Source of the DNA: Candidatus Latescibacterota bacterium
GTDB lineage: Bacteria; Krumholzibacteriota; Krumholzibacteriia; WVZY01; JAKEHA01
Direction of reading: 5' to 3'
Assembly (NCBI GenBank): GCA_963736125.1
Contig: CAVTNQ010000002.1
Location: 292,989 to 356,988 of the forward strand
DNA: 64,000 nucleotides
Shown here: piece after piece, positions 8,508 to 47,458 of the stretch
Numbering within the stretch: position 1 is the first letter of the stretch
How the letters are laid out: each line of letters starts with the position of its first letter
Position numbers and translations under genes: made by a program
The notes under the pieces: model-generated
What the model was told of the DNA's origin: nothing
The model's input: the letters and a program-made list of their open reading frames with translations, nothing else
Database searches by the model: none

Positions 8508-9762
8508 ATGGCGTCGGCGCCCGGCGGCAGCATTCGATTCTGGCTGAAGGGATACCTGTTCCTCGGCGTGGCCGTGCTCATCCTGGCCATGCTGATCTAC
8601 TCCAATCATCTCATCGAACGCATGCGCGAGAACTCCGAGGCGACCAGCCGCCTGTTCTCGCGCTACATGGAAAACGTCATCTTCGAGGTGACCGACGACG
8701 GCCGCCTGGCCAACCTGCGCACCGTCATTCGCGAGACCGACCTCCCCATCATCATCACCGTGCTCGACGGCGTACCCATTCTGTGGAACCACGTGCCGGT
8801 CGAAGAACGCACGGCGGAAGACTTCAGCCTGATCGAGTCGATCGACGCTCGACGTGGACATCCGCCCAACGAGAAGTTTCGCAAGCTGGTCGACCTGTAT
8901 CGTGAGTTCGACAAGAAGAACGCGCCCATTCCCATTCGCGTGGTCGGTGCCAGCGAACCCTCGGGTTGGGTGCACTACGGACCGTCGCCGCTGCAACGCG
9001 AGTTGCGCTACATGCCGTTCGTGCTGCTCGGCATATTCTTGATCTTCATGGCCGTCGCGATTCAAGGGCTTCGTTATCTCAAGTTGAGCGAGCAACGGTC
9101 CATCTGGGTCGGGCTCGCGAAAGAGACCGCGCATCAACTCGGCACACCACTCTCCGCGATGCTCGGTTGGGTGCAGGTCATCAAAGACAAAGCTGCCGAC
9201 AAGGGTTACGACGACATCCGCGGATCTATCGAAGAGATGGAAGTCGACCTCGGACGTTTGAACAAAGTCACCGATCGTTTCAGCAAAATTGGTTCGACGC
9301 CGGACTTGGTCGAAGTCGACTTGAGGCGCGTGCTCGAGAACACCGTCGCGTATTTCCAGAAACGACTCCCCAGCCTCAAATCCAAGTCGGCCATCTCGCT
9401 CGTGGTGGGCGACATCGCGCGCGTGCGCGGCAACGAAGAGCTGCTCGAGTGGGTGTTCGAGAACTTGATCAAGAACGCCATTGACGCGCTCGGCGAAGCC
9501 GGCGGCCAAATCGAGATTCGCGCCGCCAATGACGCTGGCAGCAAGTTCGTCGACGTCACCGTACACGACACCGGCCGCGGCATTCCCGGGCGCACTGCGC
9601 GACGACGTGTTCCGCCCCGGCTTCACCACCAAACGCCGCGGCTGGGGCCTGGGCCTCGCCCTCGCGCGCCGCATCGTCGAGGAATACCACGGCGGCTCCA
9701 TCAAACTCGTCGAATCACGCCCCGGCAAGACGACGTTCTTGGTGAGACTGCCGGCTGCCTAG
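8508..9762 (+). CDS. Sensor histidine kinase, PorY-like, with a +1 frameshift near 9585-9595 (C/G homopolymer)
   Basis: Two TM helices flank a periplasmic domain; HisKA H-box ETAHQLGTPLSAMLGW; HATPase N-box NLIKNAIDA and G1 HDTGRGIPG in frame 0; the G2 end of the ATPase (GFTTKRRGWGLGLALARRIVEEYHGG) continues in the next frame (ORF 9481..9762). Confidence 0.75.
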
Positions 9763-9856
9763 CGCGCAGCCCTCCCGCCTTGATGCCCGCGTCCGCGGGC
9801 CTTATACTCCCAGCACACCATGACTGCAGTCTCATTCCCGCATTCTTTCTAGTTCT

Positions 9857-11405
9857 ATGGCTAACAAACGCATTCTTTGGGTCGACGACGAGATCGAGCT
9901 GCTGAAGTCGCATGTGATGTTCCTGCGCGACAAGGGCTACGACGTCCAAACCGCCACCAACGGGACGGACGCCGTGAACCTGGTCAAGGAGGGGCGCTTC
10001 GACATCATGCTGCTGGACGAGTCGATGCCGGGGCGCGGCGGGCTGGAGACGTTGGTCGAGATCAAGGAATCCGACCCGGTGCTTCCGATCGTGATGATCA
10101 CGAAGAACGAGGAAGAGCGGCTGATGGACAACGCGATCGGGATGAAGATCGACGACTACTTGCTGAAGCCGGTCTCGCCGCTGCAAATCTACTCGGCCTG
10201 CAAGCGCATCTTGGACGCGCCCAAGATCCAGGAGAACCGGCTCTCGCCGGACTACATCAAAGAGTTCAACGAGATCAATACGCTGGTGCAAGAAGGAACG
10301 TGGGACGCGTGGCTGCGCGTGCACCGGCGCATGTGCGCGTGGGACCGGGAATTCGACCAGTTCCGTAACAGCGGACTGGATTCGACGCACGACGACCAGA
10401 AGCTGAACACGGCGCATCACTTCGGGCTCTTCGTCGAAAAGAATTATCGCGACTGGGTGGCCTCCGACAAACGACCGCCGATGAGCCTCGACGTGTTCCC
10501 GCGTTTCATCGCGCCGCATTTGCTCAAGGGCGAGAGGCTGTGCTTCATCCTGGTCGACTGCGTGCGCTTGGATCAGTGGATCGCGATCGAAGATTTCCTC
10601 TCGGAGCAGTTCGACGTGCAGTGGGACTATCTATTGCTCGATCCTTCCCACCGCCACACCGTACTCGCGCAACGCGATCTTTAGCGGTCTGTTCCCCGAC
10701 GACATCGCGCGCCGCTACCCCGACAAGTGGCTCGAGCGCATCAACGAAGATTCGAGCAAGAACAAGTTCGAATCCTTCTTCATGGGCGAGCAGATGAAGA
10801 AGCTGAAACTCGACGAATCGAAGATGCGCTACATGAAGATTCACACCGCGCAGGAAGCGGGGGACGCGCGCAAGCGGGTGGCCTCGCTCATGACCTCGCC
10901 CTTCGTGTCGCTGGTGTTCAACTTCGTCGACATTCTCACCCACGGTCGCAACCAGTCGGACATCCTGCAGCAGCTCTTGCCGAACGAGAGTGCGTTCCGC
11001 TCGCTCATGCGCTCGTGGTTCTCGCACTCGGTCCTGCGCGATATTCTCTCCGACCTCGCGCGCGCCAAAGTGAAGGTGATTCTCACCACCGACCATGGGT
11101 CGATCCTGGGCCGCAAGGCGGCGCTCGTGTACGGACGCCGCGACACCTCGACCAACCTGCGCTACAAGTTCGGCGACAACCTGAAGTGCGATGAAAAGCA
11201 AGCCATCATCGCCCGCAAGCCGTCGGAGTTTCGTTTGCCGTCGGAGTCGGGGACGAAGAACTACATTTTCGCGAAGGAATATTTCTACTTCGTTTACCCG
11301 ACCAACTTCCGCGACTACGAGAAGGCCTACGAGGGAAGCTTCCAACACGGCGGCGTTTCCCTCGAGGAGATGATCCTCCCCTGCCTCACCTTGACACCGC
11401 GCTAG
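9857..11405 (+). CDS. Response regulator with C-terminal PglZ (alkaline-phosphatase-like) domain, PorX-like; frameshift near 10640-10650
   Basis: N-terminal CheY-like REC (ILWVDDE...IMLLDESMPG...KPV); the PglZ signature TPYSRNAIFSGLFP is readable in the alternate frame just upstream of the ORF-track stop at 10684; the PglZ C-terminal motif HGGVSLEEMILP is present; the two ORFs 9857..10684 and 10782..11405 together give about 516 aa, which is PorX-sized. Confidence 0.7.
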
Positions 11406-11407
11406 CG

Positions 11408-11883
11408 GTGCCTACGCGAGTCATGTCGCGAGAACTCGTCCACACGGTGCGCACGCACGACGCGGCCGAAACCGAACGCTTCGGGGCGGCTGTGGGCGCG
11501 CGCATTCGCGGCGGCGCGTGCGTGTGCTTGACGGGCCCGTTGGGAGCGGGGAAGACGGTGCTGGTGAAAGGGCTGTGCCGCGGGCTCGGTGTCGTCGACG
11601 CGGTGACGAGCCCGACGTTCATTCTGATGGAATCGTTCGCGGGGAGACTTCCCATCGTCCACATCGACTTGTATCGACTCGAGCACGAGCGCGAGGTCGA
11701 AGACATCGGCGTGTTCGACTGCTCGACGGCGACACGGTCGTGATCGCCGAGTGGGGCGAGCGCTCGCCGCTTCTCTACGACGCCGCCGATATCGAAGTGC
11801 GCATCGAGCCGAGCGAGGGAAGACGCGCGCACCTCCATATCCACGCAACACCCGACGTTCGCGCGTGTACTGGGCGATTTGAC
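11408..11883 (+). CDS. tsaE: tRNA threonylcarbamoyladenosine biosynthesis protein TsaE (P-loop ATPase), with a 1-nt deletion near 11718; 3' end uncertain
   Basis: Walker A TGPLGAGKT; the C-terminal TsaE segment LLDGDTVVIAEWGE...HLHIHA continues in the -1 frame; no stop is visible before the tsaB ATG. Confidence 0.6.
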
Positions 11884-12617
11884 ATGGTGACGCTCGCTCT
11901 CGATACCTCGCACGCCGTGGGATCGGTCGCGCTGGCGCGCGACGGCGTGGTGCTGGGCGAGATCGCTTCGACGGCGCCGTCGTCGCACTTGGTCGAGCTC
12001 GCACGCGCGGTGGAACGGTTGCTCGGCGAGCAGCGGACTGACCGCGCGTGACGTCGACTCGCGTCGCGGTGGTGTTGGGGCCGGGGAGTTTCACGGGAGT
12101 GCGCATCGCACTCGCGTTCGCAAAAGGGCTCGTCGCGGCGGGCGCGGAGTTGGTCGGCATGGATTCGTTGTCGGTGCTCGCCCTTCCGTTCTTCGACGAG
12201 AGGCACGAGCGCGTGTGTGCCATGATCGACGCCAAGCGCGGCGAAGTCTACGGTGCCGTGTACGAGCGCGCGCGAGGTGCGAATCCGCCGGGACTGGAAG
12301 CGATCGTGACGCCGCGCGCCGAGGCACCGCGGGCGTTCCTCGATGCGCTCGCGCAGGCGCCCGATCTCTTCGTCGGCACCGGGGCCGTCGCACACCGCGA
12401 CGACATCGAGGCGCGCTTCCGGCGCGCCGAGATCGCGAAGGAAGCGCGCGCGTATCCGTCGATGGCGATCTTCGCCTCGATCGCCCATCTCTTGCCGCCG
12501 TTCACGCGCGACGCGGTGAGCGCGCTCGAGCCCATCTATCTGCGACCGAGTGGAGCCGAGCGCAAGCGGCTGCGCGCCCACGCGCCGGGGAAGGCGGGCG
12601 ACGATGGCCTCATCTGA
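11884..12617 (+). CDS. tsaB: tRNA t6A biosynthesis protein TsaB (inactive Kae1 paralogue), two nearby 1-nt indels around 12030 and 12060
   Basis: MVTLALDTSHAVGSVAL N-terminus; the diagnostic GPGSFTGVRIA motif resumes in a third frame after a short middle-frame piece SGLTARDVDS that fits the TsaB alignment. Confidence 0.65.
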
Positions 12618-13071
12618 ACGGCCGCCGGTCGTCCTCGCAGAGCTTTCCGATGAGCATGTTGCCGACCTGCTCAGGATCGAGGGCGAACTATTTCCGGCAC
12701 CATGGACCGAAGCCATGTTTCGCCAGGAAGTGGAAGAGAAGTGGCTGTCGCGCTCTTTTGTAGCATTGCTCGACGAGAAGATTGTCGGCTATGTCATTGC
12801 TTGGTTCCTGCGCGGCGAAGTACACGTGCTGAACCTCGCCGTGACGACGAAACACCAGCGCAAGGGCATCGCGCGTTTTATGCTCGCGCACATCATCGGA
12901 CTCGCGAACGAAGAAGCGTGCCACCTCGTCACCCTCGAGGTGCGCGTGTCGAACGACCCCGCCAAGCTGCTCTATATGTCGATGGGCTTTGCACCGGTGG
13001 GAATCCGTCGCCGCTACTACCACGACAACAACGAGGACGCGCTGGTCATGACCAAGCGCTTGCGCGGATGA
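12604..13071 (+). CDS. rimI: Ribosomal-protein-alanine N-acetyltransferase (GNAT)
   Basis: GNAT motifs (LAVTTKHQRKGIARFML; YMSMGF) with the canonical tsaE-tsaB-rimI neighbourhood; the ATG at 12604 overlaps the tsaB end. Confidence 0.7.
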   Translation: MASSERPPVVLAELSDEHVADLLRIEGELFPAPWTEAMFRQEVEEKWLSRSFVALLDEKIVGYVIAWFLRGEVHVLNLAVTTKHQRKGIARFMLAHIIGLANEEACHLVTLEVRVSNDPAKLLYMSMGFAPVGIRRRYYHDNNEDALVMTKRLRG

Positions 13072-13817
13072 GCGCGCGGCGGTTCGCCTTCATCGCGGGC
13101 AGCGGCATGGACCCGGTGGCGCGCGCCATGACGATTGGCCGCGAGATTCGCTTCGACGACATCGCCGGCGTGGGTGTGTGCGGGGTCGAAGGCCACACCG
13201 GCCGCGTGCTGGAAGGGACCATCGCGGGGCGTGCGTGCACCCTCGTGATGGGTCGACGCCACGTCTACGAAGGCGACCCGGCCGCCGTCGCGCACCTGGT
13301 CGAATGGCTGGCCGCGAGTGGCGTCACCGACCTCGTCATGGCGTCCGCGGCCGGGGCCCTCCATCGACGCCTCGACGCGGGCGATCTGGTGGTCGCGCGC
13401 GACGTCATTGACCTCCAGAATCGGGAGTATCTCGCGCGGCGCGGAAACACGGGCGGCGCGAGCGTCGGTGAAAGTCTTCGCATCGACCCCGGGCTCGCAT
13501 CCGCCGTGGAGCGTGCCGCTACCGCGGCACGTGTTCCCTGGCAGCGCGGGACGATTGTGTGCGGAGTCGGGCCCGCCTACGAAACCAAAGCCGAGGTTCG
13601 GATGTTACAGGACTGGGGCGACGTCGCCACGATGTCGTCGGCCCCCGAGCTGGCCGCGGCGAGTCGGCTGGGGATTCGAGCCGCCGCGATCGCGTTGGTA
13701 ACGAACCCATGCACCGGCGTCGCGTCGTCGCGGCCCAATCACCAAGAGGTCTTGGAAGTTGGCCGGCGGATGGCGGTCGGGCTGGTCAGTGTTTTTGAGC
13801 AACTGATTGCCCAGTAG
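13068..13817 (+). CDS. Purine nucleoside phosphorylase / MTA phosphorylase family (PNP_UDP_1 fold)
   Basis: GSGMD near the N-terminus; GRRHVYEG motif; C-terminal MSSAPE...VTN motifs of PNP/MTAP-family phosphorylases; its ATG overlaps the rimI stop. Confidence 0.6.
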   Translation: MSARRFAFIAGSGMDPVARAMTIGREIRFDDIAGVGVCGVEGHTGRVLEGTIAGRACTLVMGRRHVYEGDPAAVAHLVEWLAASGVTDLVMASAAGALHRRLDAGDLVVARDVIDLQNREYLARRGNTGGASVGESLRIDPGLASAVERAATAARVPWQRGTIVCGVGPAYETKAEVRMLQDWGDVATMSSAPELAAASRLGIRAAAIALVTNPCTGVASSRPNHQEVLEVGRRMAVGLVSVFEQLIAQ

Positions 13818-13943
13818 TCGATTACGACGCCAAGTCGAGGGCCGCCTATCGGCGGCCGGATTAGGGTTGTGGCCCGCTGTCGCGGGCCCGTATAGTCTCC
13901 CCAACACCCCAAGCACCCGAAGGGAAGGACGGTGCTTTCGTAG

Positions 13944-14843
13944 TTGTCCTGGTTCCGTAGGGAAAAACGGGGCGTCCAGCCCATTCAGAAGAAGGCCATC
14001 CCCGACGGCCTGTGGAAGAAGTGCGACTTCTGCGGGGAAATCCTCTACGTCAAAGAGCTCGAGAAGCGGTTGTGGACGTGCTCGAAGTGCGGCAACCACT
14101 TCATGATCTCGACCCAACAGTACATCGAGATCCTGGCCGACCCGGGGACCTTCCGTGAGACGCACACCGGTTTGATCTCCGGCGACCCGCTCCAGTTCAA
14201 AGACCTCAAGAAGTACAAGGACCGCATTCGCGAGTACCACGAGAAGACCGGCATGGAAGACGCCATGGTGACCGGCTTCGCGTCGATGAACGGCCGCGAC
14301 GTCGTCCTCGCCATCATGGACTTCTCCTACATGGGCGGCAGCATGGGCTCGGTCGTGGGCGAAAAATTCGCGCGCGCCGCCCAGGACGCGATTCTCCGCC
14401 GGCGCCCCTTGATCTCGCTCTCGCGCTCGGGCGGGGCCCGCATGCAGGAGTCGATCTTCTCGCTCATGCAGATGGCGAAGACCAGTGCCATGCTTTCGCG
14501 CCTGTCCGAAGAAGGGCTCCCGTTCATCTCGATCCTGACCAACCCGACCACCGGTGGAGTGACCGCCAGCTTCGCCAGCCTGGGCGATGTCATCATCGCC
14601 GAGCCCAAGGCGCTGATCGGGTTCGCGGGACCGCGCGTCATCCAGCAAACCATCCGGCAAGACCTCCCCGAAGGATTCCAGCGCAGCGAGTTCCTGCTCG
14701 AGCACGGCATGATCGACATGATCGTCCCGCGCGACGAGTTGCGCCACGTGCTCGACGGGCTGCTCGACTTCATGTGCGCCCGCGCTGCGTCCGCCTCGGA
14801 CCAGGAAGTGAAGGATGACTCGCAGTCGCCGGCCGTTTCCTGA
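13944..14843 (+). CDS. accD: Acetyl-CoA carboxylase carboxyltransferase beta subunit
   Basis: MSWFRREK...CDFCGEILY...CSKCGNHF zinc-ribbon N-terminus and a carboxyltransferase core; TTG start. Confidence 0.85.
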   Translation: MSWFRREKRGVQPIQKKAIPDGLWKKCDFCGEILYVKELEKRLWTCSKCGNHFMISTQQYIEILADPGTFRETHTGLISGDPLQFKDLKKYKDRIREYHEKTGMEDAMVTGFASMNGRDVVLAIMDFSYMGGSMGSVVGEKFARAAQDAILRRRPLISLSRSGGARMQESIFSLMQMAKTSAMLSRLSEEGLPFISILTNPTTGGVTASFASLGDVIIAEPKALIGFAGPRVIQQTIRQDLPEGFQRSEFLLEHGMIDMIVPRDELRHVLDGLLDFMCARAASASDQEVKDDSQSPAVS

Positions 14844-16185: not shown

Positions 16186-17147
16186 GCGCGTGGATCGGCG
16201 TCGACATCGGCGGCACCAACATCAAGATCGCGACCGTCTCCGCGACGGGCGCCGTCCTCGCGCGCGGAGTGGTCGAAACACGGGCCGGTGAAGGGCCGGC
16301 GGCCGCCTTCCGTCGCATCCACGAGGCTGCGCGTTACCTGGCCGGTCGGCAGTCGATCGCGGGTGTCGGCATCGGCTGCGCGGGCCTGATCGACGCCCGC
16401 CGCGGCCTCCTGCGCGTGTCACCCAACCTACCCGCGTGGAAGGGCGCACCCCTCGCGCGCCTCGCGCGCGCGCATTTTCGACTGCCCATCGCGATCGAGA
16501 ACGACGCCACCAGTGCCGCCTTCGGCGAGTCCTTCGTGCGCGGCGAACGCGGTCGCCATTTGGTGTTCATTACCTTGGGAACCGGGGTGGGCGGTGGGAT
16601 CGTGGCCGACGGGCGCGTGGTGCGCGGGGTGTCGGGGTTTGGTGGCGAGATCGGCCACATGACCGTCGACCCCAACGGGCCCACGTGTCGATGTGGCTCA
16701 CGCGGTTGTCTGGAGGTGTACGCGGGGTCGTACGGGATCGTGCGCGCGGCTCGTGAGGCCGCGAAGGCGTCCGCTAAGGCGCGGCGCGCCCCGCTGGCGC
16801 GACGACTCGGCGGCCGCTCCGTCAGCGCGCGCGACGTCCTCGACGCCGCTCGCCGCGGCGATGTCGTCGGGCGCGCAGCGGCCCGTGTCGCCGGCGAGCA
16901 CCTCGGCCTTGCGATCGCGTCGATGCTGAACGTCTTGAATCCCTCCGCGGTCGTGATCGGCGGCGGGGTGGCGGGCGGCTTCGACGTCTTGGCGCCCCAC
17001 GTGCGGCGCGCGGTCGCGCGCTTCGCCTTCGCCGACACGGCGCGCGCGGCGCGCATCGAGCCCTCGCGACTGGGCAACGACGCCGCCGTCGTGGGAGCGG
17101 CGATGCTCGCGCGCTTCAACACTCGCCCTGCCAGGAAGACCCGGTGA
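16182..17147 (+). CDS. ROK-family sugar kinase (glucokinase-like)
   Basis: IGVDIGGTNIK N-terminus; the ROK zinc motif CRCGSRGCLE; TTG start overlaps the folC stop; the ORF-track N-terminal extension is spurious. Confidence 0.75.
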   Translation: MSAWIGVDIGGTNIKIATVSATGAVLARGVVETRAGEGPAAAFRRIHEAARYLAGRQSIAGVGIGCAGLIDARRGLLRVSPNLPAWKGAPLARLARAHFRLPIAIENDATSAAFGESFVRGERGRHLVFITLGTGVGGGIVADGRVVRGVSGFGGEIGHMTVDPNGPTCRCGSRGCLEVYAGSYGIVRAAREAAKASAKARRAPLARRLGGRSVSARDVLDAARRGDVVGRAAARVAGEHLGLAIASMLNVLNPSAVVIGGGVAGGFDVLAPHVRRAVARFAFADTARAARIEPSRLGNDAAVVGAAMLARFNTRPARKTR

Positions 17148-20707: not shown

Positions 20708-20780
20708 GGTAGGGCGCGAGCCCCGCCGGGAGATATCCCCCGAAACCCGCGTGGGCACGCCACGAACATCGGAATATGTG

Positions 20781-20809
20781 TTGACACGTTTTTTTCGAGG
20801 TCGATAAAG
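20781..20809 (+). promoter_or_regulatory. Putative sigma-70-type promoter for the HU gene (TTGACA, 17-nt spacer, ATAAAG), followed by a strong SD GGAGG at about 20826
   Basis: A perfect TTGACA at 20781-20786 and an A/T-rich hexamer 17 nt downstream; the spacing fits, but the match to the -10 consensus is only partial. Confidence 0.35.
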
Positions 20810-20839
20810 TGCGCGTGAGAATGGGAAGGAGGTGACAGA

Positions 20840-21133
20840 ATGAACAAAACCGAATTGATCGAACGCGTAGCTCAGAAGACAGGGCTCACGATGAAAGATG
20901 CCAAGAACGTCGTCGACGCGATTTTCAGCACGCAGCCCAAGAACGGCATCATCGCCAACGAGCTCAAGTCGGGTCGCAAGGTTCAGATCACCGGCTTCGG
21001 GACATTCGTGATCCGTCGGCGCAAGAAGCGCGAGGGCAGGAACCCGCAGACGGGCGCGACCATCGAGATTCCAGCGACCAAGTTCCCAGCCTTCTCCGCG
21101 GGCCGTGCTCTGAAGGACCGCGTCAAGGTGTAG
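20840..21133 (+). CDS. hup: DNA-binding protein HU
   Basis: [12 protein letters not shown]...GFGTF...RNPQTG...IPA, the canonical HU/IHF fold; 97 aa. Confidence 0.9.
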
Positions 21134-21158
21134 GGACCCGGCAGTTAGAGAACTGCTC

Positions 21159-21198
21159 GGCAGGCGGAGCGCGAAACAGCGCCCCGCCTGCTTTTTTG
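21159..21198 (+). terminator. Rho-independent terminator after the HU gene
   Basis: GCAGGCGG ... CCGCCTGC GC-rich hairpin followed by TTTTTTG. Confidence 0.7.
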
Positions 21199-34342: not shown

Positions 34343-34429
34343 GTCGACGTCCTTAAGGTTGTTTGCGAGCGGTGGGGGGAATCGTCTATATTGGGGTCTC
34401 AATCGAACGAATGACCACACGATGATAGT

Positions 34430-36217: not shown

Positions 36218-36219
36218 GC

Positions 36220-38031: not shown

Positions 38032-38040
38032 ACGAGTACG

Positions 38041-39778
38041 GTGATGCGACGATATGCCGCGCTACTTCTCGCCCTGGCGTTGCTGCTCCCGAGCGTCGCG
38101 GGAGCATCGCGCATCGAGTGCCGCCTCGACGGTGTGAAAGACGAGGACGTCCTCAAGAACATCGAAGCCACGCTCTCGATTTTTCGCGACCGCGACCGCG
38201 ACGACCTGACCCCCGCACGTATTCAGCAACTGCACGAGCGCGCACCCATGGAGATTCGTCGCGCGGTGGAGCCGCTCGGCTACTACCACTGCGAGGTCGA
38301 GGGAGCGCTCACGCCCCGCGACGGAGATAAGTTCGACGCGCGCTACGTCATTTCGCTCGGCGAGCCGGTTCGCGTGGGCCGCGTCAACGTGTCGGTGTCC
38401 GGCGACGGGAGCAAGCGCGCACCGTTCCCAGATTTGGTGGCGAAGTTTCCTCTGCAGCCGGGCAGCGTGCTCGACCAGCGGCTGTACACGCGGCAAAAGA
38501 ATGCCTTCGCGGCGGCGGCGATCGACAGCGGCTACCTGGATGCGACCTTCACCACGAGTGCGATCCACCTGAATCGGGACGACAACGTCGCGGACATCGA
38601 TCTCGTGTTCGCGACCGGGCCGCTGTACCGGTTCGGCCCGGTGACGTTCGATTCGACCTCGGTGGACGAACGCGTCCTGCGGTCTTACCTCACGTTCAAG
38701 CGCGGGGATCCCTTTCGTTACCGCAAACTGCTGTCGTTCCAATCCGCGCTGGGGGGTGCCCCGTACTTCAGCCGCGTGGAAGCGGTTCCGCGCCGCGACG
38801 TGGTGGACGACCACGAAGTTCCCATCGAGGTGAAGCTCACGATGCGCCGGCCGCGTCGCTACGAGGTCGGCGTCGGGTATGGCACCGACACCGGGCCGCG
38901 CATTCTTCTCAATGTCGAGTTCCGCCGCTTGAACCGGGCCGGCCATCGCTACACCGGACGCTTGAATCTCTCCGAGATCGAGCTGTCGCTCAACGCGGAG
39001 TACGTGATGCCATCGCGCTATCCCGATGTGCACGCGTACAGCATCGGTGCGGTGGTCGCGCGTCTCGATCCCGTCTCCTACACCACGACACGGCTGGCGG
39101 TGGGACCGACGCGGTCGCAACCCCGCTTCGGCTGGCGCGAGTCGATCACGATGAGCTACGAGCACGAGGACTACACGGTGGGGCCGGACGAAGGCATCAC
39201 GGACTTGGTCATCGCGGGCCTCACCTACCGACTCAAGCGCGCCGACGACGACATCCTGCCCACGCACGGCTACCGGCTGGACGTCGGCGCGCGCGGCGCC
39301 AGCGATGAGTTGCTTTCGTCACAGAGCTTCCTGTCGCTCACGGGCTCCGCGAAAGGGGTACGCTCGCTGAGCGATCGCGTGCGGGTGTTGGCGCGCGTCG
39401 ACGGCGGGTGGACGTCGACGACGTCGGTGCGCGACTTGCCGCCGACGGTCCGCTTCTTCGCCGGAGGCGACAACAGTGTCCGCGGCTACGAATACGAGTC
39501 GCTGGGCCCGGTCGCGGACGACGGACGCGTGGTCGGCGGCGAATTGGTTGCTCGTCACCTCGGCCGAACTCGAAGTCAGGCTGGCGGGCAAGTTCGGGCT
39601 GGCCGCCTTCTACGACGCCGGCAACGCGTTCTCGTCGCCGGGCGAAGGCGTGATCGAGCGGGGCACGGGTTTGGGACTGCGCTGGCGCTCCCCGGTGGGA
39701 CCGATCCGTCTCGACACGGCGTTCGCCGTCGATCACGACGATTGGCGCATTCACTTCACGATGGGACCCGACCTGTGA
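38041..39778 (+). CDS. tamA: TamA (Omp85/BamA-family outer-membrane translocation-assembly protein), with a 1-nt insertion near 39538
   Basis: Signal peptide; POTRA-like repeats; Omp85 motif RFFAGGDNSVRGYEYESLGP; the barrel end (GLAAFYDAGNAF...GLGLRWRSPVGPIRLD...RIHFTMG) continues in the +1 frame (ORF 39476..39778). Confidence 0.7.
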
Positions 39779-42700
39779 CGCGCGCGCGACGCATTCTTCG
39801 CTGGGTCGGTTTCGGCGTGGGAATCCTGCTGGCACTGGTCGTACTCGTGTCGGCCTTCGTTCTCTTCAGCGAGCCGGGTGCGCGGCTGGCGCTGGGATTC
39901 GCGAACCGGAGCGATGTGCCGGTTCGCGCGCGCTCGATCGAGGGGACGTTGGCGGGGCGCTTCGAGTTGCACGGCGTGGAAGTGCGGGTCGGACGGCTCT
40001 CGGCTTCGATCGACACCGTGCGCGTCGCGTGGCGGCCGCTGGCACTGCGCAAGCACCGCGTCGACATCACGGACGCGACGATCGCGGGGGCGCGTGTCGT
40101 GGTCGGACCGGCGGCGCCGGACTCGGTGCGCCAGGAGAAGAGCGCATCCGCCGACTCGACGCGCGAGCGCTGGGTGGTGACCGCCGATCGCGCGCGGGTT
40201 CGCAATGCCACCCTCGACGCACCCGGCGATGTGCACCTCGTCGATGTCGATCTGGTCGGAAGCGGCGGCCCGGACGGCTATCGCGCCGAGATCACGGCGT
40301 CGGGAGCAGCGTGGCGCGTTCCCGAATTGCGAGCGTTTGTGCGCGCGGCCGGCAACACGCGCGCGGTTACCGTCGACTCGCTCGACGTTCGATTGCTGGA
40401 CGGAACGCTCGCCGGCAACGCGTTCGTGCGCTGGAGCCCGGGGTTGTCGTGGCGCGGCCGCCTGCGCGGCGATTCGCTTCAAGTCGGCGAGTTGAGCGAC
40501 ACGCCGCGTGACTGGCTGGGTGCGGTCGCGTTCCGCGCGCAAACGACGGGGACCTTGCGCGAGGATTCCACGCGCATCGGCATCGACCTCGCGTCGCTGG
40601 ACGGTGTGTTGCGCGGTCGCGCGCTATCCGCGGGCGGACGCATCGACGTCGACGGAACGCGCATCGCGTCGCCGGGTGCCTGGGTGCGCTGGGGTCGTGC
40701 CAGTGTGCGCTTCTCCGGCCGCATGGACGAGATCGCGGACGTCACCCTCGACGCCACAGTACCGTCCCTAGCCGAAATTCTGCCCCGCGCGCAAGGGTCG
40801 GCGCGGTTGCGCGGTCGCGTCACCGGCACTTCGTCGAAGTTCGACGTCGACGTCGAGACGAGCGGTCGAGGCGTGCGCGTGGAGCGCCGGAGCATCCCCG
40901 ATTTCGACGCCACGATCGACGCGACGCTCGTCGCGCGCGACTACGTCCCGGAGAGCGCCGACCTGCGCCGCGCCGAGATACGAGTCGGCCGCGGGAAACT
41001 GGAGGTGCGGGGCGGCGCGTCGTGGCACGACGGCATCGCCTGGAAGGTGGCGCTCGCGGCCGACAATTTCGAAACGTCGACGCTGACACCCGCGCGTTGG
41101 AACCTGTACGGACCGCTCTCGCTGCGCGCCACGACTTCGGGAGAGCGACGCAGGCACGTGCGTGGCACCGCGTCGATCGAGACGCTGTCGGGGTCGATTC
41201 GTGGCGCCGCGCTGAGCGGTGCGGGGAGTGTGGTGGTCGACGGCGGCGAAGCGGACTTCTCGGACGTGCACCTCACGTGGGGCGATGCGCACGCGATCGC
41301 CGACGGTCACGTCGGCGCCACCCTCGACCTCGAGTTCGACGTCGTGGCACCCGACTTGGCTCGGCTCGATGCGACGCTGCACGGTGCCTTGTCGATCCAG
41401 GGGAAGGCGCACGGTGCGCGCACCCGACCCGTCGTCACGGCGACCGTCCGCGCCGACAGTCTGCGCACGCGCGGATACGCGGTGGATCACCTGCGAGCGA
41501 GCATCGACGCCGACCTCGCATTCGCGACGCCGGCCGACGTCCGCGTGTCGGCGTTGGGCGCGTCGCGGGGCGAGACCCGCTTCGACAGTGTCAGTGTCAA
41601 TATCGCCGGACCGCGCGATCGACACCACGCGTCGGTCCTGCTGGCGGCGGGTGACCGACGCCTCACGCTGTCGGTGACGGGTGCCTACGCGGATTCGGCG
41701 TGGTCGGGCTGGATCGAAGACGTGCGGCTTCGTCACCCCGTGGCGGGCGCATGGCACTCGCTCGGTCGCGCGTCCGTCGCTGTGTCTCGCTCACACGTGC
41801 AGCTCGATTCGCTCACCCTCGCGTCGGGGAGCGCGCGTCTTTCCGCCGTCGCCGACTGGCGACGCGGTGGTGCCGCGCGCGTCGATCTCGCCGCCGGCCC
41901 GGGGAAGATCGTGCGCGAAGGGAACGCGATCGAGTACAGCGGCCGGCTCTCGGCCCGCGCCGACACGACGGGTATCTTCGCGCGTCTCGATATCGACCTC
42001 GGTCGCGATGGTGCCCTCGCCAAGGTCGACGGAGAGGCGTCGATGCCGCACTTCGTCATCGGGCGCGATTCGCTCGCGACCCAGCCGCTCGAGGGCAAGA
42101 TCGACCTCCACTGCGCCGACATCGGGCCCGTGCTGGCGGTGCTCGCACCCGACCTGCGCAAGTCGTCGGGTAGGCTCACCGCGCAAATATCGCCCAAGGG
42201 AACCGCGGGGAACTTCGCGCTCGTGGGTCGCGTGGCACTCGAGAAGGCGCGCTTCGACCTTGCGTCCGGGCTGCACCTGCGGGACACGGAACTCTTGATG
42301 GTCGCGGACGGGGACGGCCGCGTGTCGTTGAACGGCACCGCGACGTCGGGCGGGGGACGCGTGCGGGTCGAAGCCACGAGCGCGCGGTCGGCGAAAGGCT
42401 GGATCGAGGGAAGTGTTACCGCCAAGGGCGAGCGCTTCCAACTGATCGACCAGCCCGACGCGCAAGTGTTCGTGTCGCCCGACGTGGAGTTGCGGTTGGA
42501 GCCGCATCACGCGGCCGTGACCGGTACCGTGCGCGTGCCATTCGCGCGCATCGAGACGGCACAGGTGCCGGCGTCGGCCGCCGCGACCTCACCCGACGTC
42601 GTGTTCGTCGAAGACACACTGGCGACGAAGGAGGCCACGACGATGACCGCGAAGGTACGCGTGGAACTCGGCGACAGCGTGAGCTTCACAGGCTTCGGGC

Positions 42701-43365
42701 TGCGCGCGCGACTGGCAGGAAGCCTGGACGTCGACGACGAACGCGGTCGTCCGACGCGCGCAACCGGCGAGATTCAGATCGTGGACGGAAAATATCGCGC
42801 GTTCGGCAGCGAGCTCAAGATCGACCCGGGCCGCCTCGTTTTCGGCGGCGGAGCGATCGACAACCCCGGGCTCGACGTGCGCGCATACCGCGGTTTGAGC
42901 ACCCAACAGGTCACGGTGGGCTCGGGCGACATTGTCGGCGTCATCCTGCGCGGCACGCTGCGCCGGCCGGAACTCTCCGTCTTCTCCAATCCAGCCATGT
43001 CGGAGAGCGAGATCATGTCGTATCTCGTGCTGGGCCGGCCCATGTCATCTGGTGATCAATCGGCGCTGGCCAGTGCCGCGTTGCTCATCGGCATGCAGCA
43101 GGGAACGCAGATCGCGGGCGACATCGGCGGACGCTTCGCGCTCGACGAAGCGTATCTCGAGTCCGGGAGCGAGGCCAACGAGACCGCCTTCGTGGCGGGC
43201 AAGTACCTCTCGCCGACACTCTACGTCAGCTATGCGACCGGTCTGTTCGAGAAGACCAACACCTTCCGCGTGCGCTACTCGCTGGCGAAGCGATGGACCC
43301 TGCAAGCGGAAAGCGGAGATGCCAGCAGCACCGATATCCTGTACTGGTTCGAGCGCGGGAAGTAG
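39775..43365 (+). CDS. tamB: TamB (translocation and assembly module subunit, DUF490/AsmA-like)
   Basis: GTG overlapping the tamA stop (GTGA); N-terminal TM anchor; about 1200 aa of beta-rich repeats; C-terminal DUF490-like end (LGRPMSSGD..., YVSYATGLFEKTN, RVRYSL...WTLQAESGD). Confidence 0.7.
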   Translation: MTRARRILRWVGFGVGILLALVVLVSAFVLFSEPGARLALGFANRSDVPVRARSIEGTLAGRFELHGVEVRVGRLSASIDTVRVAWRPLALRKHRVDITDATIAGARVVVGPAAPDSVRQEKSASADSTRERWVVTADRARVRNATLDAPGDVHLVDVDLVGSGGPDGYRAEITASGAAWRVPELRAFVRAAGNTRAVTVDSLDVRLLDGTLAGNAFVRWSPGLSWRGRLRGDSLQVGELSDTPRDWLGAVAFRAQTTGTLREDSTRIGIDLASLDGVLRGRALSAGGRIDVDGTRIASPGAWVRWGRASVRFSGRMDEIADVTLDATVPSLAEILPRAQGSARLRGRVTGTSSKFDVDVETSGRGVRVERRSIPDFDATIDATLVARDYVPESADLRRAEIRVGRGKLEVRGGASWHDGIAWKVALAADNFETSTLTPARWNLYGPLSLRATTSGERRRHVRGTASIETLSGSIRGAALSGAGSVVVDGGEADFSDVHLTWGDAHAIADGHVGATLDLEFDVVAPDLARLDATLHGALSIQGKAHGARTRPVVTATVRADSLRTRGYAVDHLRASIDADLAFATPADVRVSALGASRGETRFDSVSVNIAGPRDRHHASVLLAAGDRRLTLSVTGAYADSAWSGWIEDVRLRHPVAGAWHSLGRASVAVSRSHVQLDSLTLASGSARLSAVADWRRGGAARVDLAAGPGKIVREGNAIEYSGRLSARADTTGIFARLDIDLGRDGALAKVDGEASMPHFVIGRDSLATQPLEGKIDLHCADIGPVLAVLAPDLRKSSGRLTAQISPKGTAGNFALVGRVALEKARFDLASGLHLRDTELLMVADGDGRVSLNGTATSGGGRVRVEATSARSAKGWIEGSVTAKGERFQLIDQPDAQVFVSPDVELRLEPHHAAVTGTVRVPFARIETAQVPASAAATSPDVVFVEDTLATKEATTMTAKVRVELGDSVSFTGFGLRARLAGSLDVDDERGRPTRATGEIQIVDGKYRAFGSELKIDPGRLVFGGGAIDNPGLDVRAYRGLSTQQVTVGSGDIVGVILRGTLRRPELSVFSNPAMSESEIMSYLVLGRPMSSGDQSALASAALLIGMQQGTQIAGDIGGRFALDEAYLESGSEANETAFVAGKYLSPTLYVSYATGLFEKTNTFRVRYSLAKRWTLQAESGDASSTDILYWFERGK

Positions 43366-43388
43366 ACTAGCGGCGTGAGTGTGCCACC

Positions 43389-43825
43389 ATGACCCAACCC
43401 CTCGTCCGCCCCGCCACCGAACGCGACGCCCCCGAGGTCGCGCGCTTGCTGACCGCACTCGGTCATCCGACCGGCGCGGAGTCGATCGTGTCGCGCTGGG
43501 AGGAATGGATCGCGGCGGGGAACGTCGCGTTGGTCGTCGACGGCGACCGCGGGGCACTCTTGGGTGTCGCGACCTTGCACCACATGGTGGTACTGCACCG
43601 CCCGAAGCCGGTCGGACGCATCACGGCCCTCATCGTCGACGAGCGGCACGCGGACGCGGCGTCGGCCGGGCACTGGTGGCCGCCGCGGAAGCGGAGCTCG
43701 CGCGCGTGGGCTGCGGTTTGTTGGAGATCACGAGCAACGCGCGTCTGGTCGACGCGCACGCCTTCTACGAGCACCTCGGGTACGAGCGAACGAGCGCGCG
43801 CTTCGCGAAGATGCTCAACCGTTAG
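43389..43825 (+). CDS. GNAT-family N-acetyltransferase, with a 1-nt deletion near 43648
   Basis: N-terminal RPATERDAPEVARLL; the acetyl-CoA motif RGRGVGRALVAAAEAELARVGC and the C-terminal EHLGYE are readable only after shifting frame (ORF 43379..43825); the 377-aa ORF 43389..44522 is an artefact. Confidence 0.6.
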
Positions 43826-43832
43826 TTCCCAG

Positions 43833-44654
43833 CTAGAAAGCGATCTGCACGCTCACACCCGGGTCCCCCTCGATGGAAACGGGGTGGAGCGACACGCGGT
43901 CGTCCGCGATGGCGTGAAGCTGCGGGACGAAGTAGCCGATGCCGGCGCCGATCAAGTACCCCGCGATGGCGTCGGTGCGAAAGTGGTGGCCGGAGTCGAC
44001 GCGCAGGATGCCCGTGATCGCCGGCAACGTCGCCGCACCGGCCCACATCGCGATCTTGGCCTTCGGACTCTCGACGTACGCCGAAAAGACGCGCGCCATG
44101 AAGAAGCAATTGCACGCGGTCGACGTGGTGTGGCCCGAGTAGAACGACAGCCGCGCGGATTCCGTCGTTTTCTTGTCGAGTGGAGTGTCGGCGTCGTAGA
44201 CGTACGGGCGCGTTCGCAGCACCGTCGTCTTGACGACACCGTTGATCCCCAGATTGAGTGCCGTCGCTTCCAGCCACATGACCCCGATCGTGTGCCAGTC
44301 GCGCTTGGTGTCGTCGCGCACGAAGGTGGTGAGGGGAAGCAGGTACGAGATCGCCGTGAGCACATCGCCCGAATGCGAGCTTTCGTACGGATTGATGGCA
44401 CCGCGATCGAAGCTATTCACGTCGTCGGGATTGAGGGCGTTGATCTCGTCGACCGTGAGTGGGTCGACGTTGCCGAGGAGAACAAGACTCGTGACGCCGA
44501 GTGCGACACCCGAGCCCAATAGGGCGACCTCGCGCGTCTTCTGGAGTCGAAACGGCGACTGCGCCACACTCGTGTGCGCCATGGCCACGATCGTCAAGGC
44601 GACGATTGCAACGCGCACACCTCGGGCTACTCGAATGGGGAACTCGAACCGCAT
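43833..44654 (-). CDS. PAP2-superfamily membrane phosphatase
   Basis: Signal peptide; PAP2 motifs KxxxxxxRP (KTTVLRTRPY), SFYSGHT and RVDSGHHFRTDAIAG. Confidence 0.7.
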   Translation of the reverse strand: MRFEFPIRVARGVRVAIVALTIVAMAHTSVAQSPFRLQKTREVALLGSGVALGVTSLVLLGNVDPLTVDEINALNPDDVNSFDRGAINPYESSHSGDVLTAISYLLPLTTFVRDDTKRDWHTIGVMWLEATALNLGINGVVKTTVLRTRPYVYDADTPLDKKTTESARLSFYSGHTTSTACNCFFMARVFSAYVESPKAKIAMWAGAATLPAITGILRVDSGHHFRTDAIAGYLIGAGIGYFVPQLHAIADDRVSLHPVSIEGDPGVSVQIAF

Positions 44655-44790
44655 GGTGGGGGCCGATCTTACTGCACGCGCGGCAACGGGGCCAGCGCTA
44701 TCGCACCGAACCGTCGTGGACAATCCGCGGCGCGTGCGTTAGCCTGTCCTCCATGAAGGGCTCCTACCGAGCGCTCATGCTTTTGGCGGC

Positions 44791-47458
44791 ATGACGCTCA
44801 ACCCCGGCACCAAACTCGGTCCCTACGAAATCCTCGTCCCCCTGGGCGCGGGCGGCATGGGCGAAGTCTATCGCGCGCGCGACACGCGCCTGGGCCGCGA
44901 CGTGGCCATCAAGGTGCTGCCCCAGCATCTCTCGTCGAATCGCGGAAGTGCGCGCGCGCTTCGAGCGCGAAGCGAAGACGGTCTCCGGCCTCAATCACCC
45001 GCACATCTGCACGCTCTTCGACGTCGGCCGCGAAGGCGAGACGGACTTCTTGGTGATGGAATTGATCGACGGCGAGACGCTGGCGAAGCGCCTCACGAAG
45101 GGCCCGATGGCGGTGTCGGAGGTCGTGAAACTCGGCGTGCAGATCGCCGACGCGCTGGACGGCGCGCACCGCGCCGGCATCGTCCACCGCGACTTGAAAC
45201 CCGGCAACGTGATGCTGACCAAGTCGGGTGCGAAACTCATGGATTTCGGCCTCGCGCGCGCGACCGGCCTGGCCAATCCGTCGGGCAGCGGCGCGTCGAT
45301 GGAATCCCTCACGCAATCGCCCACGATCGCACAACCGCTGACGGCGGAAGGGACGATCGTCGGCACGTTCCAGTACATGTCGCCCGAACAACTCGAGGGC
45401 AGCGAAGCCGACGCGCGCAGCGACCTGTGGGCGCTGGGATGTGTTCTCTACGAAATGACGACGGGCAAACGCGCCTTCGAGGGCAAGAGCCAAGCGTCGT
45501 TGATCGGCGCCATCATGAATTCCCAGCCGGCGCCGATCTCGCAGTTCGCCCCCATGAGCCCGCCCGCCCTCGAACGCCTGGTCAAGCAATGTCTCATTCG
45601 CGACGCCGACGAACGCTGGCAGTCGGCCGGCGATGTGCGCCGCGAGCTGGAGTGGATTGCCGGCAGTTCGTCGCAGAGTGCGGCGCCGCCGATTGCGCAT
45701 CGCCGAAGATTCTCGCGCGGAGCGATCGGCCTTTTCGCCGGCATCCTGATCGCGGCCGTGGCGATCGCGCTCTCGTTCGGTCCGGGAAGGAAACACAGCG
45801 GCGCGGGGCCTCTCATGCGCTTCAGCCTGGAAGCGCCCCGCGGATCGATCCTGACGCAACCCGCCGAACTGGCGTTGTCGCCGGATGGGACCATGCTGGC
45901 GCTGGTCGCGGCCGACAGTGTTGGAAAAGCGTCGATCTACATTCGTCCTCTGGCGAGCGCGGAAGCCCGCGTACTACCGGGGACGGAGTTGGGTTCGCTC
46001 CCGTTCTGGTCGCCCGACAGCCGCACGGTCGCTTTCTTCTCCGGGGGCAAGCTGCGCAAGATTGCCGTCGGTGGTACCGAGCCGGTGGTTCTGTGCGATG
46101 CGCCCGACGCGCGCGGCGGTGACTGGTCCAAGAACGGCGTGATCGTATTCGCCCCCAACAATCAGGGCCCGATCGCGCGCGTGTCCGAAAACGGCGGAGA
46201 TCCGGAGCCGGTGACGACGATCAACGCAGCGCGCCACGAACGCGGCCACCGCTACCCGCAGTTTCTTCCCGATGGAAAACATTTTCTCTACGTGGCGGTC
46301 GGTGCCGACGAGACGGTGGTCACCTACCGCGCGTCGATCGAAGGCGGCGATGCCGAGGAAGTCTGCCAGGGTGGATCCGAGGCACGGTGGGCGGAACCGG
46401 GATATTTGTTGTTTCTAGACAGCGGAGTCAATTCTCCCCGCCGCCGTCTGCTCGCGCAGCGCGTCGATCCGGGCACCCTGCGCGCCACCGGAGATCGGGA
46501 ACTCGTGTTGGACCCGGTCAACGCGACCAACTTTGGCTATGCGAACGTGACCTCGGATGCCCGCAACACGCTCGTGGTGCAGCATTGGAGCGACGCCCAC
46601 CGGAGCCTGGAGTGGGTCGACCGGCGCGGCGTGAAGCTGGGCACCGTAGTCGACGACCTGGCGCTCGGCACGCTGGCACTGAGTCCCGACGGCGAACGAC
46701 TGGCGTATTCCGGCCTGGACCCGCAGGACCTGTTTGTCCTGGATCTCAAGACCGGTGTCTCCACGCGGCTGACCTTCGAGAACAAGAGCATTACGACCAT
46801 CGTGTGGTCGCCCGATGGCCACACCCTCGCGTTCTCACGTCTCTCGAGCGGATGGCAGATGTACATGAAAGCCGCGGACGGCACGGGACCCGATTCACTC
46901 CTGTTTCGCGGCCCCGCGATGTTCAACTTTGCCGACAATTGGTCGGAAGACGGACGCTGGATCGTCGCCGAGTGCGCGGACAGCAGCGGCAATCGCGATC
47001 TCTGGAAGATACCGATGCAGGGTGGCGGACGGCCGTCGGTGTATCAGCGAACGCCCGCGGCGGAACAGGGGGCGTCGTTTTCTCCAGACGGTAAGTGGAT
47101 CCTGTACCAGGTTCCCGAGGGCGACGAGTTCCCGCTCTATGTGCAATCATTCCCGACGCCAGGGTCGAAGTACCAGGTGGCTTTCAAGAATCCGCTGGGC
47201 GCGGGGTGGTCCAAAAAGGGGAATGCGATTTTGGTTGGTGGTGGCGATAACGAGGTGTTTTCCATCGATGTTTCCACTGCGGGCGGTTTCCGCCAGGGCG
47301 CCACACATCGTCTCTTCCGTATGGAAGCGGCCCAAATCTTTTCCGGCATCGCACCCGGCGAGCAGAAATTTCTGATGGCGCGGCTCAAAGACGTCTCGTC
47401 GCTTTCGCGCATCGAAGTCGTCCTCAACTGGCCGTTGCTCCTGAACCACTCGAAATAG
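44791..47458 (+). CDS. Membrane Hanks-type Ser/Thr protein kinase with TolB-like beta-propeller ectodomain (paralogue 1; 1-nt insertion near 44940)
   Basis: Kinase subdomains ([29 protein letters not shown]); a single TM helix; repeated LSPDG/FSPDG/WSPDG beta-propeller blades; the N-terminal 50 aa are in a different frame from the rest (ORFs 44791.. and 44948..). Confidence 0.7.

Follow-up and report, generated by a model that had tools for sequence, protein, structure and literature searches.

In decay pseudogenes, such as those of host-restricted bacteria, the lesions are inherited by related strains, stops accumulate and the synonymous-site bias is lost. Programmed frameshifting is exemplified by the +1 shift of prfB, the -1 shift of dnaX and the transposases of IS elements. 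Frameshifts are also caused by long-read consensus indel errors, and bins under ~40x need polishing (PMC9262707). Further, in collapsed assemblies close allelic variants lead to read misalignment and INDEL errors (PMC8445201). Here, we compare with these systems a group of frame breaks in a 64,000-nucleotide stretch of DNA, hereafter the window. We infer that it comes from an uncultured Krumholzibacteriota-like bacterium and from a metagenome assembly of the long-read type, and the coverage, platform and per-read support are likewise deduced. Based on the comparison with another assembly of this species, we propose that ten of the eleven indels are probably consensus errors private to the assembly and not mutations of the organism (a probability of roughly 0.88), for which strain collapse is the likely mechanism.

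Frame breaks in seven conserved genes

Eleven single-nucleotide indels disrupt seven conserved genes in the window (Table 1). Three-frame translation of each site and a codon-usage Viterbi analysis of the whole window show that, at the sites listed in the original prediction, the reading frame switches on the same strand with no intervening stop, and tblastn searches initiated using orthologues of related loci return, at these points, pairs of neighbouring HSPs that lie in two different frames. The breaks split the Pfam domains HATPase_c (54-109), TsaE (2-89), TsaD (53-130), Omp85 (230-322) and GNAT (73-116). All eight frame breaks claimed originally exist, but their total was understated, as three further events were missed, viz., the +1 insertion at ~11850 in tsaE and the -1/+1 pair at 11962/11973 in tsaB. 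The REC-PglZ break is real, though it had been placed at ~10645; that of GNAT is real too, but is better placed at GAG^CGG than described as 'cacc to cac', given that close relatives have DEPARGRGVG here. The Viterbi switches at 17120, 33783, 30232, 57773 and 62141 are ordinary gene borders and not breaks, and an apparent indel pair in folC (15347/15352) arises from the way neighbouring substitutions (GDT versus GQT) are aligned and is not an error site.

Table 1. Indels, artefactual ORFs and the strain-divergent patch, in window coordinates
Feature	Position	Strand	Frame switch	Description
HK (HATPase_c histidine kinase, 8508-9762)	9585..9590	+	9583-9590	+1 insertion in ATTCCCGGGC; window-private
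REC-PglZ response regulator (9857-11405)	10629..10631	+	10629-10631	+1, GACT[A]TCTAT, no homopolymer; window-private
tsaE (11423-11890)	11719..11720	+	11719/20	1-nt deletion, GA(T/C)CTG to GACTG; window-private
tsaE	11849..11853	+		+1 insertion (ACACCCG); first frame regained 131 nt past the deletion
tsaB (11884-12617)	11962..11963	+		1-nt deletion (GAGAT-CGC), first of compensating pair
tsaB	11973..11975	+		+1 insertion (GACGGCG), second of compensating pair
tsaB	12034..12035	+	~12034	+1 insertion, CAG CG[G][A] CTG
tsaB	12058..12059	+	12059	+1 insertion, GTCGA[C][T]CGC, no homopolymer
tamA (38044-39778)	39537..39541	+	39537-39541	+1 insertion in GGCGGCGAAT; window-private
GNAT acetyltransferase (43389-43825)	43643..43644	+	~43644	1-nt deletion, GAGCCGG to GAGCGG; common to contig_81987
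Ser/Thr kinase 1 (44791-47458)	44939..44941	+	44940	+1, TCGAA[T]CGCG; window-private
contig_81987 private +1 insertions	5778, 7329, 7863, ~8510, 33666, 34023, 34053, 43112, 47712, 47803			
Strain-divergent patch	10900..12100	.		~50 substitutions per kb vs contig_81987; elsewhere 0-10 per kb
Artefactual tamA-tamB fusion ORF	38041..43365	+		1774 aa
Artefactual ORF	43389..44522	+		377 aa; GNAT N-terminus out of frame across the antisense of PAP2 (43833-44723, minus)
Artefactual ORF	11518..12051	+		177 aa; out-of-frame tsaE joined to tsaB N-terminus
Artefactual HK ORF	8508..9905	+		465 aa; out-of-frame run into REC-PglZ start

Undoing the eleven indels yields single ORFs of orthologue length with zero internal stops. 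The repaired lengths of 515, 155, 243, 577, 145 and 888 aa equal those of the comparators exactly, and HK has 417 versus 415 aa. As originally stated, the proteins continue in the adjacent frame, the frames being open past each break and the repaired ORFs free of internal stops. In the more distant relatives (L001, L003 and L081-L084) the seven genes are intact in all.

The individual sites were compared with these relatives and with the same-species comparator (contig_81987 of ENA ERZ25039502). At the HK break, contig_81987 has CCC-GGC and L081 has CCCGGGA in frame, and the kinases of relatives are of 415-418 aa. The REC-PglZ site reads GACT-TCTAC in L081, L082 and contig_81987; the repaired protein is equal in length to that of contig_81987 with 99.4% identity, and its homologues, which number in the thousands, have 514-518 aa. 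For tsaE, which is intact in contig_81987, the insertion at ~11850 puts the TGA at 11888-11890 in frame, overlapping the tsaB ATG at 11884, and the C-terminus that results (...ATPTFARVLGDLTW, then the stop) matches that of contig_81987 (...ATPTYASQLAVLTW, then the stop); both edits together restore a TsaE of orthologue length. The compensating pair in tsaB turns the conserved EIRFDAP into EIASTAP, while relatives have EIRFDPP, EAQFAAP or ETFREP at this position; the codon at 12058 is GAT in contig_81987 and GAC in L081, and with four edits TsaB has the same length as in contig_81987. The tamA insertion is the sole indel over 3.75 kb in comparison with L083; contig_81987 is in frame here (GGGGGGAAT), and the repaired length is that of L083 and contig_81987 alike. 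At the kinase 1 site, AAC GCG is present both in contig_81987 and in the paralogue kinase 2, and the repaired kinase is 99.9% identical to the comparator of the same length.

Comparison with a same-species assembly

Contig_81987 was aligned over window positions 3936-57456 (53.5 kb), with identities of 99.0%, 99.7% and 99.6% in the aligned segments. Ten of the eleven sites are unbroken in it (seven of the eight listed originally and the three additional ones), the exception being GNAT, and it encodes PglZ of 515 aa, TsaE of 155, TsaB of 243, TamA of 577 and kinase 1 of 888. No window-private indels were found against it in 12.1-39.5 kb or 45-57.4 kb. Contig_81987 itself carries ten private +1 insertions, at places that are unbroken in the window; these split SerRS (218+189 aa), kinase 2 (94+804 aa) and an HD protein (80+120 aa); the seryl-tRNA synthetase is broken twice. 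Since the ten indels of the window are missing in an assembly of the same species that has other breaks, they are likely to be consensus errors and not biology. The frame breaks, GNAT excepted, are thus supported as assembly artefacts, as the original prediction had interpreted them, and its rejection of pseudogenisation stands with the same exception, given the intact sites and the different breaks of contig_81987.

The 284 SNPs between the window and contig_81987 show that these are truly different strains. Third codon positions hold 172 of the 245 coding SNPs (70%), and PglZ has 25 synonymous versus 2 nonsynonymous differences. This third-position excess indicates purifying selection, the substitutions between the assemblies behaving as real divergence would. 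Past the lesions the frames are open, and they are 95-99.9% identical in PglZ, TsaB, TamA and kinase 1 and 86.5% in TsaE. An argument from a general abundance of indels in the related NCBI MAGs of the accession series was dropped, as L084 and Logan L085 (same strain) differ over 10.4 kb by 1 substitution (TTG/TAG) and 0 indels.

The three misleading ORFs named in the original prediction exist as claimed (Table 1). The true stop of tamA is a TGA (39776-39778) that overlaps the GTG start of tamB at 39775. The HK with its out-of-frame tail is on record among the proteins called in the source assembly, and the database holds truncated or fused products, such as 275+207 aa in place of the 515-aa protein. 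The broken fragments of the window are recorded from one NCBI/ENA contig alone, which is of 2,055,473 bp and belongs to an uncultured lineage. At least seven genes are miscalled in this assembly, and the worth of this finding is practical rather than biological. Pseudogene counts, completeness estimates, and pangenome or dN/dS work on this genome would be distorted, and a sister assembly of the same species reveals such errors without reads.

The universal essentiality of tsaB, tsaE and tamA, which had been invoked against their inactivation, was overstated: some bacteria can do without the t6A genes, and E. coli does not require tamA. The argument from essentiality is stronger for the seryl-tRNA synthetase, twice broken in the sister assembly.

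The deletion shared in GNAT

Between the window and contig_81987 there are zero indels in the GNAT region. Upon repair, Acetyltransf_1 (22-116) is matched in one stretch of the 145-aa protein, whose closest relative (92% identity, 145 aa) has DEPARGRGVG at the site. Being common to both assemblies, this break is not a private consensus error. Most simply, it would be a real frameshift which both strains inherited in a dispensable accessory gene; the other reading, a context-specific systematic error, would have the same base-calling or polishing error arise independently in both assemblies with no real mutation, and we regard this as possible, though the less favoured of the two. Both assemblies appear to be long-read ones of the same kind (the name contig_81987 is Flye-style), and a single restored C yields a perfect 145-aa GNAT with its family motif. 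On the other hand, the other 20 indels are all private, the bases beside the deletion differ (CGGCA versus CGACA) and hence the local context is not identical, and the gene is missing at this position in L084, so that a real pseudogene among dispensable accessory genes would be unremarkable. An error at a methylation motif was rejected, as the restored C gives GCCGGC in the window and GCCGAC in the sister, with no shared motif. GNAT alone behaves as a candidate for a real pseudogene. The alternative k-mers of the site are GACGAGCGGCACGCGG and GACGAGCCGGCACGCGG. When JGI metagenome contigs were scanned twice with exact patterns, the GNAT junction was not found in a third copy from this species.

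Origin of the private indels and comparison with known systems

The private indels are unevenly placed. Eight of the ten of the window lie inside 2,471 nt (approximate p ~1.5e-7 for uniform placement), and six are contained in the strain-divergent patch (Table 1). SNPs within +/-250 nt of the indels average 16 versus 2.5 at random positions, an association that has p<1e-4 per event and p=0.06 once the events are grouped into seven clusters. Insertions outnumber deletions by 18 to 2 among the private indels of both assemblies. The original prediction had directed attention to homopolymer lengths, but these are not homopolymer errors: no site touches a run of more than 3, at five sites the run is 1, and homopolymer slip was thus rejected as the cause. 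Among the clean insertions of both assemblies, 12 of 14 can be read as tandem doublets of two synonymous third-position alleles, e.g., GA[C][T], AA[T][C] and CTT[G] (binomial p 0.001), although the null probability is high (0.42) and several doublets fit an extension of a 2-3 nt run equally well. At 12058, both doublet alleles, C and T, occur in relatives, and the insertion at 10629 is a second-position A/T doublet matching F and Y residues, each found in relatives.

We hypothesize that reads of co-occurring strains, differing at many close SNPs, may have been merged into one consensus by the assembler or polisher. Misaligned strain reads would then cause both alleles of a SNP to be written in succession, forming a 1-nt insertion, or, more rarely, a base to be lost. 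Such a collapse would explain the clustering in the divergent patch, the excess of insertions, the avoidance of homopolymers and the synonymous third-position insertions; allele doubling leaves the two deletions and the insertion at 11973 unexplained. Tandem SNP alleles in strain-variable patches, as opposed to homopolymer slips, would be a recognisable and correctable error signature if confirmed on reads.

A simpler cause of the artefact would be random leftover long-read errors at low local depth, with no mixture of strains. This we consider rather unlikely, though each assembly has ~10 private indels per 53.5 kb bunched in short stretches, low-coverage long-read bins are known to retain indel errors (PMC9262707) and the association with SNP density reaches only p=0.06 at the level of clusters. 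The fit of 12 of 14 insertions to synonymous third-position doublets (p=0.001), the location of the densest indel cluster in the most divergent patch, the 18:2 ratio of insertions to deletions and the lack of a homopolymer association all speak against it. The original explanation, uncorrected long-read or low-coverage consensus error, thus holds as to the artefact (10 of 11 indels are absent from contig_81987), but the pattern fits a collapse of strains better than plain low coverage.

Readings in which the frameshifts are biological fare worse. Gene decay, with real strain-specific mutations and different pseudogenes in each strain, could draw on the true difference between the strains (284 SNPs) and on the shared GNAT frameshift, which could be real. 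It would, however, need six independent indels in 340 nt of tsaE/tsaB and two in the seryl-tRNA synthetase of the sister, in genes whose downstream frames are stop-free with identities of up to 99.9%, whose repaired lengths equal those of orthologues and whose substitutions bear strong purifying selection; also, the insertions favour synonymous sites, a preference not expected of real frameshift mutations. We therefore judge it very unlikely. Extremely improbable is the version in which all frameshifts are real and co-existing strains carry different recent inactivations of tsaB/tsaE (t6A pathway), tamA, signalling genes or even seryl-tRNA synthetase; were it true, it would mean an unusual local process of indel mutation, or that broken core genes are tolerated. 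In a far more modest form of this reading, the frameshift shared in GNAT would alone be real, as a recently fixed pseudogene. Programmed ribosomal frameshifting or transcriptional slippage, by which full-length proteins would still be made, could account for the seamless continuation in the adjacent frame at every break. Yet all relatives, and contig_81987 as well, encode the orthologues as plain in-frame genes, none of the sites has a slippery heptamer or a run of more than 3 nt, and +1 and -1 shifts both occur, at times several per gene; this reading is next to impossible.

The loci resemble decay pseudogenes in being frameshifted copies of recognisable genes, but differ in that 10 of 11 lesions are private, the frames past them are clean and the substitutions bear the mark of strong selection. 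They share with programmed frameshifting the continuation of the protein in the adjacent frame, but the shift is not conserved in orthologues, there is no slippery sequence and its direction is mixed. They resemble long-read consensus indel errors (PMC9262707; PMC12007338), where single-base indels likewise fragment conserved genes into truncated and fused ORFs; as in such cases, the indels are private to one assembly and gone in an independent one, and a source contig of 2.06 Mb from an uncultured organism would be typical of long-read metagenomics. Unlike the classic errors of this type, which fall in homopolymers, those described here have runs of at most 3 and are dominated by insertions (18 to 2). 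A further precedent is the collapsed versus phased assembly of Trypanosoma brucei (PMC8445201), in which close variants between co-assembled haplotypes lead, through misalignment, to spurious ORF-truncating indels; here, most of the window-private indels lie in the SNP-densest patch (with p=0.06 for the association by cluster) and the insertions are mostly tandem-allele-like. The two alleles of Trypanosoma brucei are those of a diploid eukaryote, whereas the haplotypes at this locus would be those of co-occurring bacterial strains in a presumed mixture.

Mapping and repair of the frame breaks

The window has a G+C content of ~64% and is coding nearly throughout, and three-frame translation at each site, together with a codon-usage Viterbi segmentation across the 64 kb, confirms the eight single-nucleotide frame breaks of the original prediction, along with the three misleading ORFs it had described. 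At each break the coding frame changes with no stop and no change of strand; all remaining Viterbi frame switches in the window were rejected as ordinary gene borders. The breaks cut Pfam domains; for example, the 58 residues past the break in the HATPase_c histidine kinase (HK) correspond to positions 54-109 of HATPase_c, and past the tamA break 78 residues correspond to Omp85 positions 230-322. We additionally observe three indels private to the window, i.e., 1-nt indels present in one of two same-species assemblies only, bringing the total to 11. In tsaE, the second indel restores the first frame, and the TGA at 11888-11890 then overlaps the tsaB ATG at 11884, as in the second assembly, contig_81987. 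In tsaB, a -1/+1 pair 10 nt apart (11962/11973) converts the conserved EIRFDAP to EIASTAP. The ends of the window were covered by the frame model only (57457-64000) or by the frame model and comparison with more distant relatives (1-3935).

Removal or addition of one base at each of the 11 indels yields single ORFs with no internal stop, which match their comparator lengths exactly except in HK (417 vs 415 aa). The stop/start overlaps of tamA-tamB and tsaE-tsaB, seen only after frameshift repair, suggest translational coupling.

Frame breaks, indels, repaired products and neighboring features (window coordinates; switches from translation and Viterbi segmentation)
Feature	Position	Window-private indels	Repaired (aa)	Comparator (aa)	Identity
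HK	9583-9590	9588 +1	417	L081, a more distant relative's locus (415)	84.7%
REC-PglZ response regulator	10629-10631	10629 +1	515	contig_81987 (515)	99.4%
tsaE	11719/20	11719 -1; ~11850 +1	155	contig_81987 (155)	86.5%
tsaB	~12034 and 12059	11962 -1; 11973 +1; ~12034 +1; 12058 +1	243	contig_81987 (243)	95.1%
tamA	39537-39541	39537 +1	577	contig_81987 (577)	99.0%
GNAT	~43644		145	L089, JGI relative (145)	91.8%
Kinase 1, first of four tandem Ser/Thr kinases	44940	44940 +1	888	contig_81987 (888)	99.9%
contig_81987-private indels (10, all +1)	5778, 7329, 7863, ~8510, 33666, 34023, 34053, 43112, 47712, 47803				
tsaE TGA/tsaB ATG overlap (ATGGTGA)	11884-11890				
tamA TGA/tamB GTG overlap (GTGA)	39775-39778				
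In-frame 6-nt difference in HK	8849-8859				
Divergent patch	10900-12100 (weaker 9900-13900)				
Tandem kinase array	44791-55890				

Comparison with a second strain and with relatives

Exact-sequence look-ups trace the broken products to a single recorded NCBI/ENA contig, 2,055,473 bp long (REC-PglZ halves of 275 aa and 207 aa, a TsaB piece of 189 aa, a kinase piece of 836 aa and an HK product of 465 aa with an out-of-frame tail). The 90% clusters of these products also contain close relatives encoded on an ENA contig (ERZ25039502 contig_81987, 183,538 bp), of which three overlapping pieces were aligned to window 3936-57456 with 99.0%, 99.7% and 99.6% identity. Over these 53.5 kb, the two differ by 284 substitutions and two mutually exclusive indel sets. 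The comparison with close genomes that had been proposed finds contig_81987 intact at all 10 window-private sites (REC-PglZ 515 aa, TsaE 155, TsaB 243, TamA 577, kinase 1 888), and the window is intact where contig_81987 is broken (SerRS 218+189 aa, kinase 2 94+804, HD protein 80+120). The contig_81987 insertions break a glycosyltransferase, SerRS (twice), the starts of HK and a TPR gene, an HD-domain gene (twice), the TamB C-terminus and kinase 2 (twice), and the contig_81987 gene calls must be corrected in the same way as those of the window. The third codon position accounts for 172 of the 245 coding substitutions (70%), and the codon differences in REC-PglZ comprise 25 synonymous and 2 nonsynonymous ones. 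This bias indicates that the window and contig_81987 come from two real strains and that purifying selection has acted on their genes, the apparently broken ones included. A genuine length difference in the periplasmic or linker region of HK, where the window is longer than both contig_81987 and L081, keeps the frame, unlike the 1-nt events.

The SerRS adjoining the first break cluster has its top GTDB-representative match at 78% identity, and its closest matches are Krumholzibacteriia or Latescibacteria MAGs. The relatives share the order SerRS, HK, REC-PglZ, tsaE, tsaB, rimI, PNP, accD, with each gene a single ORF (HK 415-418 aa, REC-PglZ 514-516, TsaE 154-155, TsaB 245-256). Nearly all REC-PglZ homologues are 514-518 aa long among the 120 best listed of many returned, and most TamA homologues have 577-590 aa. 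At 87% nucleotide identity, the closest tamA locus shows a single indel against the window in 3.75 kb, namely the tamA break, and tblastn of the relatives' ORFs against the window gives split HSPs at the listed break sites only.

The HK to rimI string (window 8508-13071) is conserved across Krumholzibacteriia/Latescibacteria relatives (L001, L003, L081 and L086, the last a piece of contig_81987), REC-PglZ belonging to the "bifunctional response regulator/alkaline phosphatase family". The HK/REC-PglZ gap holds a 607-aa minus-strand gene in L081; in L001 it holds an additional small ORF and an N-masked stretch within an 812-aa ORF that joins extra upstream sequence to REC-PglZ. The four tandem paralogues (888, 897, ~900 and ~1000 aa) fuse a Ser/Thr protein kinase to PD40/Tricorn-type beta-propeller repeats; over their first ~95 residues, the proteins of kinases 1 and 2 hardly differ, while the kinase-domain DNA is ~85% identical. 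The array is conserved in contig_81987 and in part in L084, an NCBI MAG contig (GCA_973582895.1). L084 is otherwise identical over 10,417 nt to L085, a Logan assembly of SRR30312860, but one base differs (TAG vs TTG; L084 3728-3787, L085 481-540), placing a stop inside an ABC-transporter gene of the MAG (61+524 aa vs 603 aa).

The GNAT frameshift

The GNAT region differs between the two assemblies by two substitutions only and the frame break is common to both, so the lesion is not a private consensus error. The repaired GNAT gives an unbroken Acetyltransf_1 match spanning the junction. Its closest relatives (up to 92% identical, 145-150 aa) read ...IVDE-PA-RGRGVG... at the break, and two JGI contigs with the window's order of tamB, GNAT, PAP2 and kinase have GAGCCCGCG vs GAG-CGGCA in the window; the missing base is thus a C at 43643/43644. 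On the simplest reading, both strains inherited a real frameshift in an accessory gene that is dispensable, the alternative being a systematic error in both assemblies. The gene is missing at the corresponding position in L084, and no third same-species copy of the junction turned up when JGI metagenomes were scanned twice by exact pattern. The interpretation of the breaks as assembly errors is supported for 10 of the 11 indels, while GNAT, common to two strains, may be real.

Origin of the private indels

GNAT apart, the frame breaks are not a biological feature and serve as a correct, useful data-quality flag. Programmed frameshifting is excluded, as all relatives and contig_81987 encode the orthologues in frame, slippery motifs are absent at the sites and shift directions are mixed. 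Real strain-specific decay of the broken genes is very unlikely; it would need tsaE and tsaB to have taken six independent indels in 340 nt while the frames downstream stayed clean, the sister strain would have to live with a seryl-tRNA synthetase frameshifted twice, and substitutions in the apparently broken genes show purifying selection.

We hypothesize that the private indels probably arose when reads of co-occurring strains were merged into a single consensus, which would be expected to produce clustered indels in a divergent patch, away from homopolymers, with an excess of insertions and doublets of alleles. Eight of the 10 window-private indels fall in a stretch of 2,471 nt (p approximately 1.5e-7 if placement were uniform), where the strains differ most (~50 substitutions per kb vs 0-10 elsewhere). 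Around indels of both assemblies (+/-250 nt), SNPs average 16 vs 2.5 at random positions, with p=0.06 once neighboring indels count as one cluster. No run longer than 3 touches any indel site, and insertions outnumber deletions by 18 to 2. Among the cleanly alignable insertions, 12 of 14 are readable as an adjacent pair of synonymous third-position alleles, for example GA[C][T], AA[T][C], CC[C][G], GG[C][G] and, three times, CTT[G] (p=0.001 given a chance of 0.42 that a random insertion qualifies as such a synonymous doublet); the other two correspond to F/Y and I/V replacements, of which F/Y is seen among relatives. Plain low-coverage error without strain mixing is a possible sub-mechanism; long-read metagenome assemblies keep frameshift-causing indels, especially below ~40x coverage (PMC9262707).

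The divergent patch itself covers tsaE and the tsaB 5' end, in contrast to long stretches elsewhere without substitutions (23-29 kb, 39.8-42.8 kb), and resembles either an allele imported by recombination or a consensus of mixed strains. The name contig_81987 fits the 'contig_N' pattern of a Flye plus one-round Medaka workflow for large soil MAG sets (PMC12313526), a match of name alone that does not imply the project origin of either assembly. A precedent for consensus of mixed sequences is the collapsed diploid long-read assembly, in which nearby allelic variants lead to misaligned reads and ORF-truncating INDEL errors (PMC8445201); the variants there are diploid alleles whereas those of the window would come from co-occurring strains, and we propose that the cause is the same.
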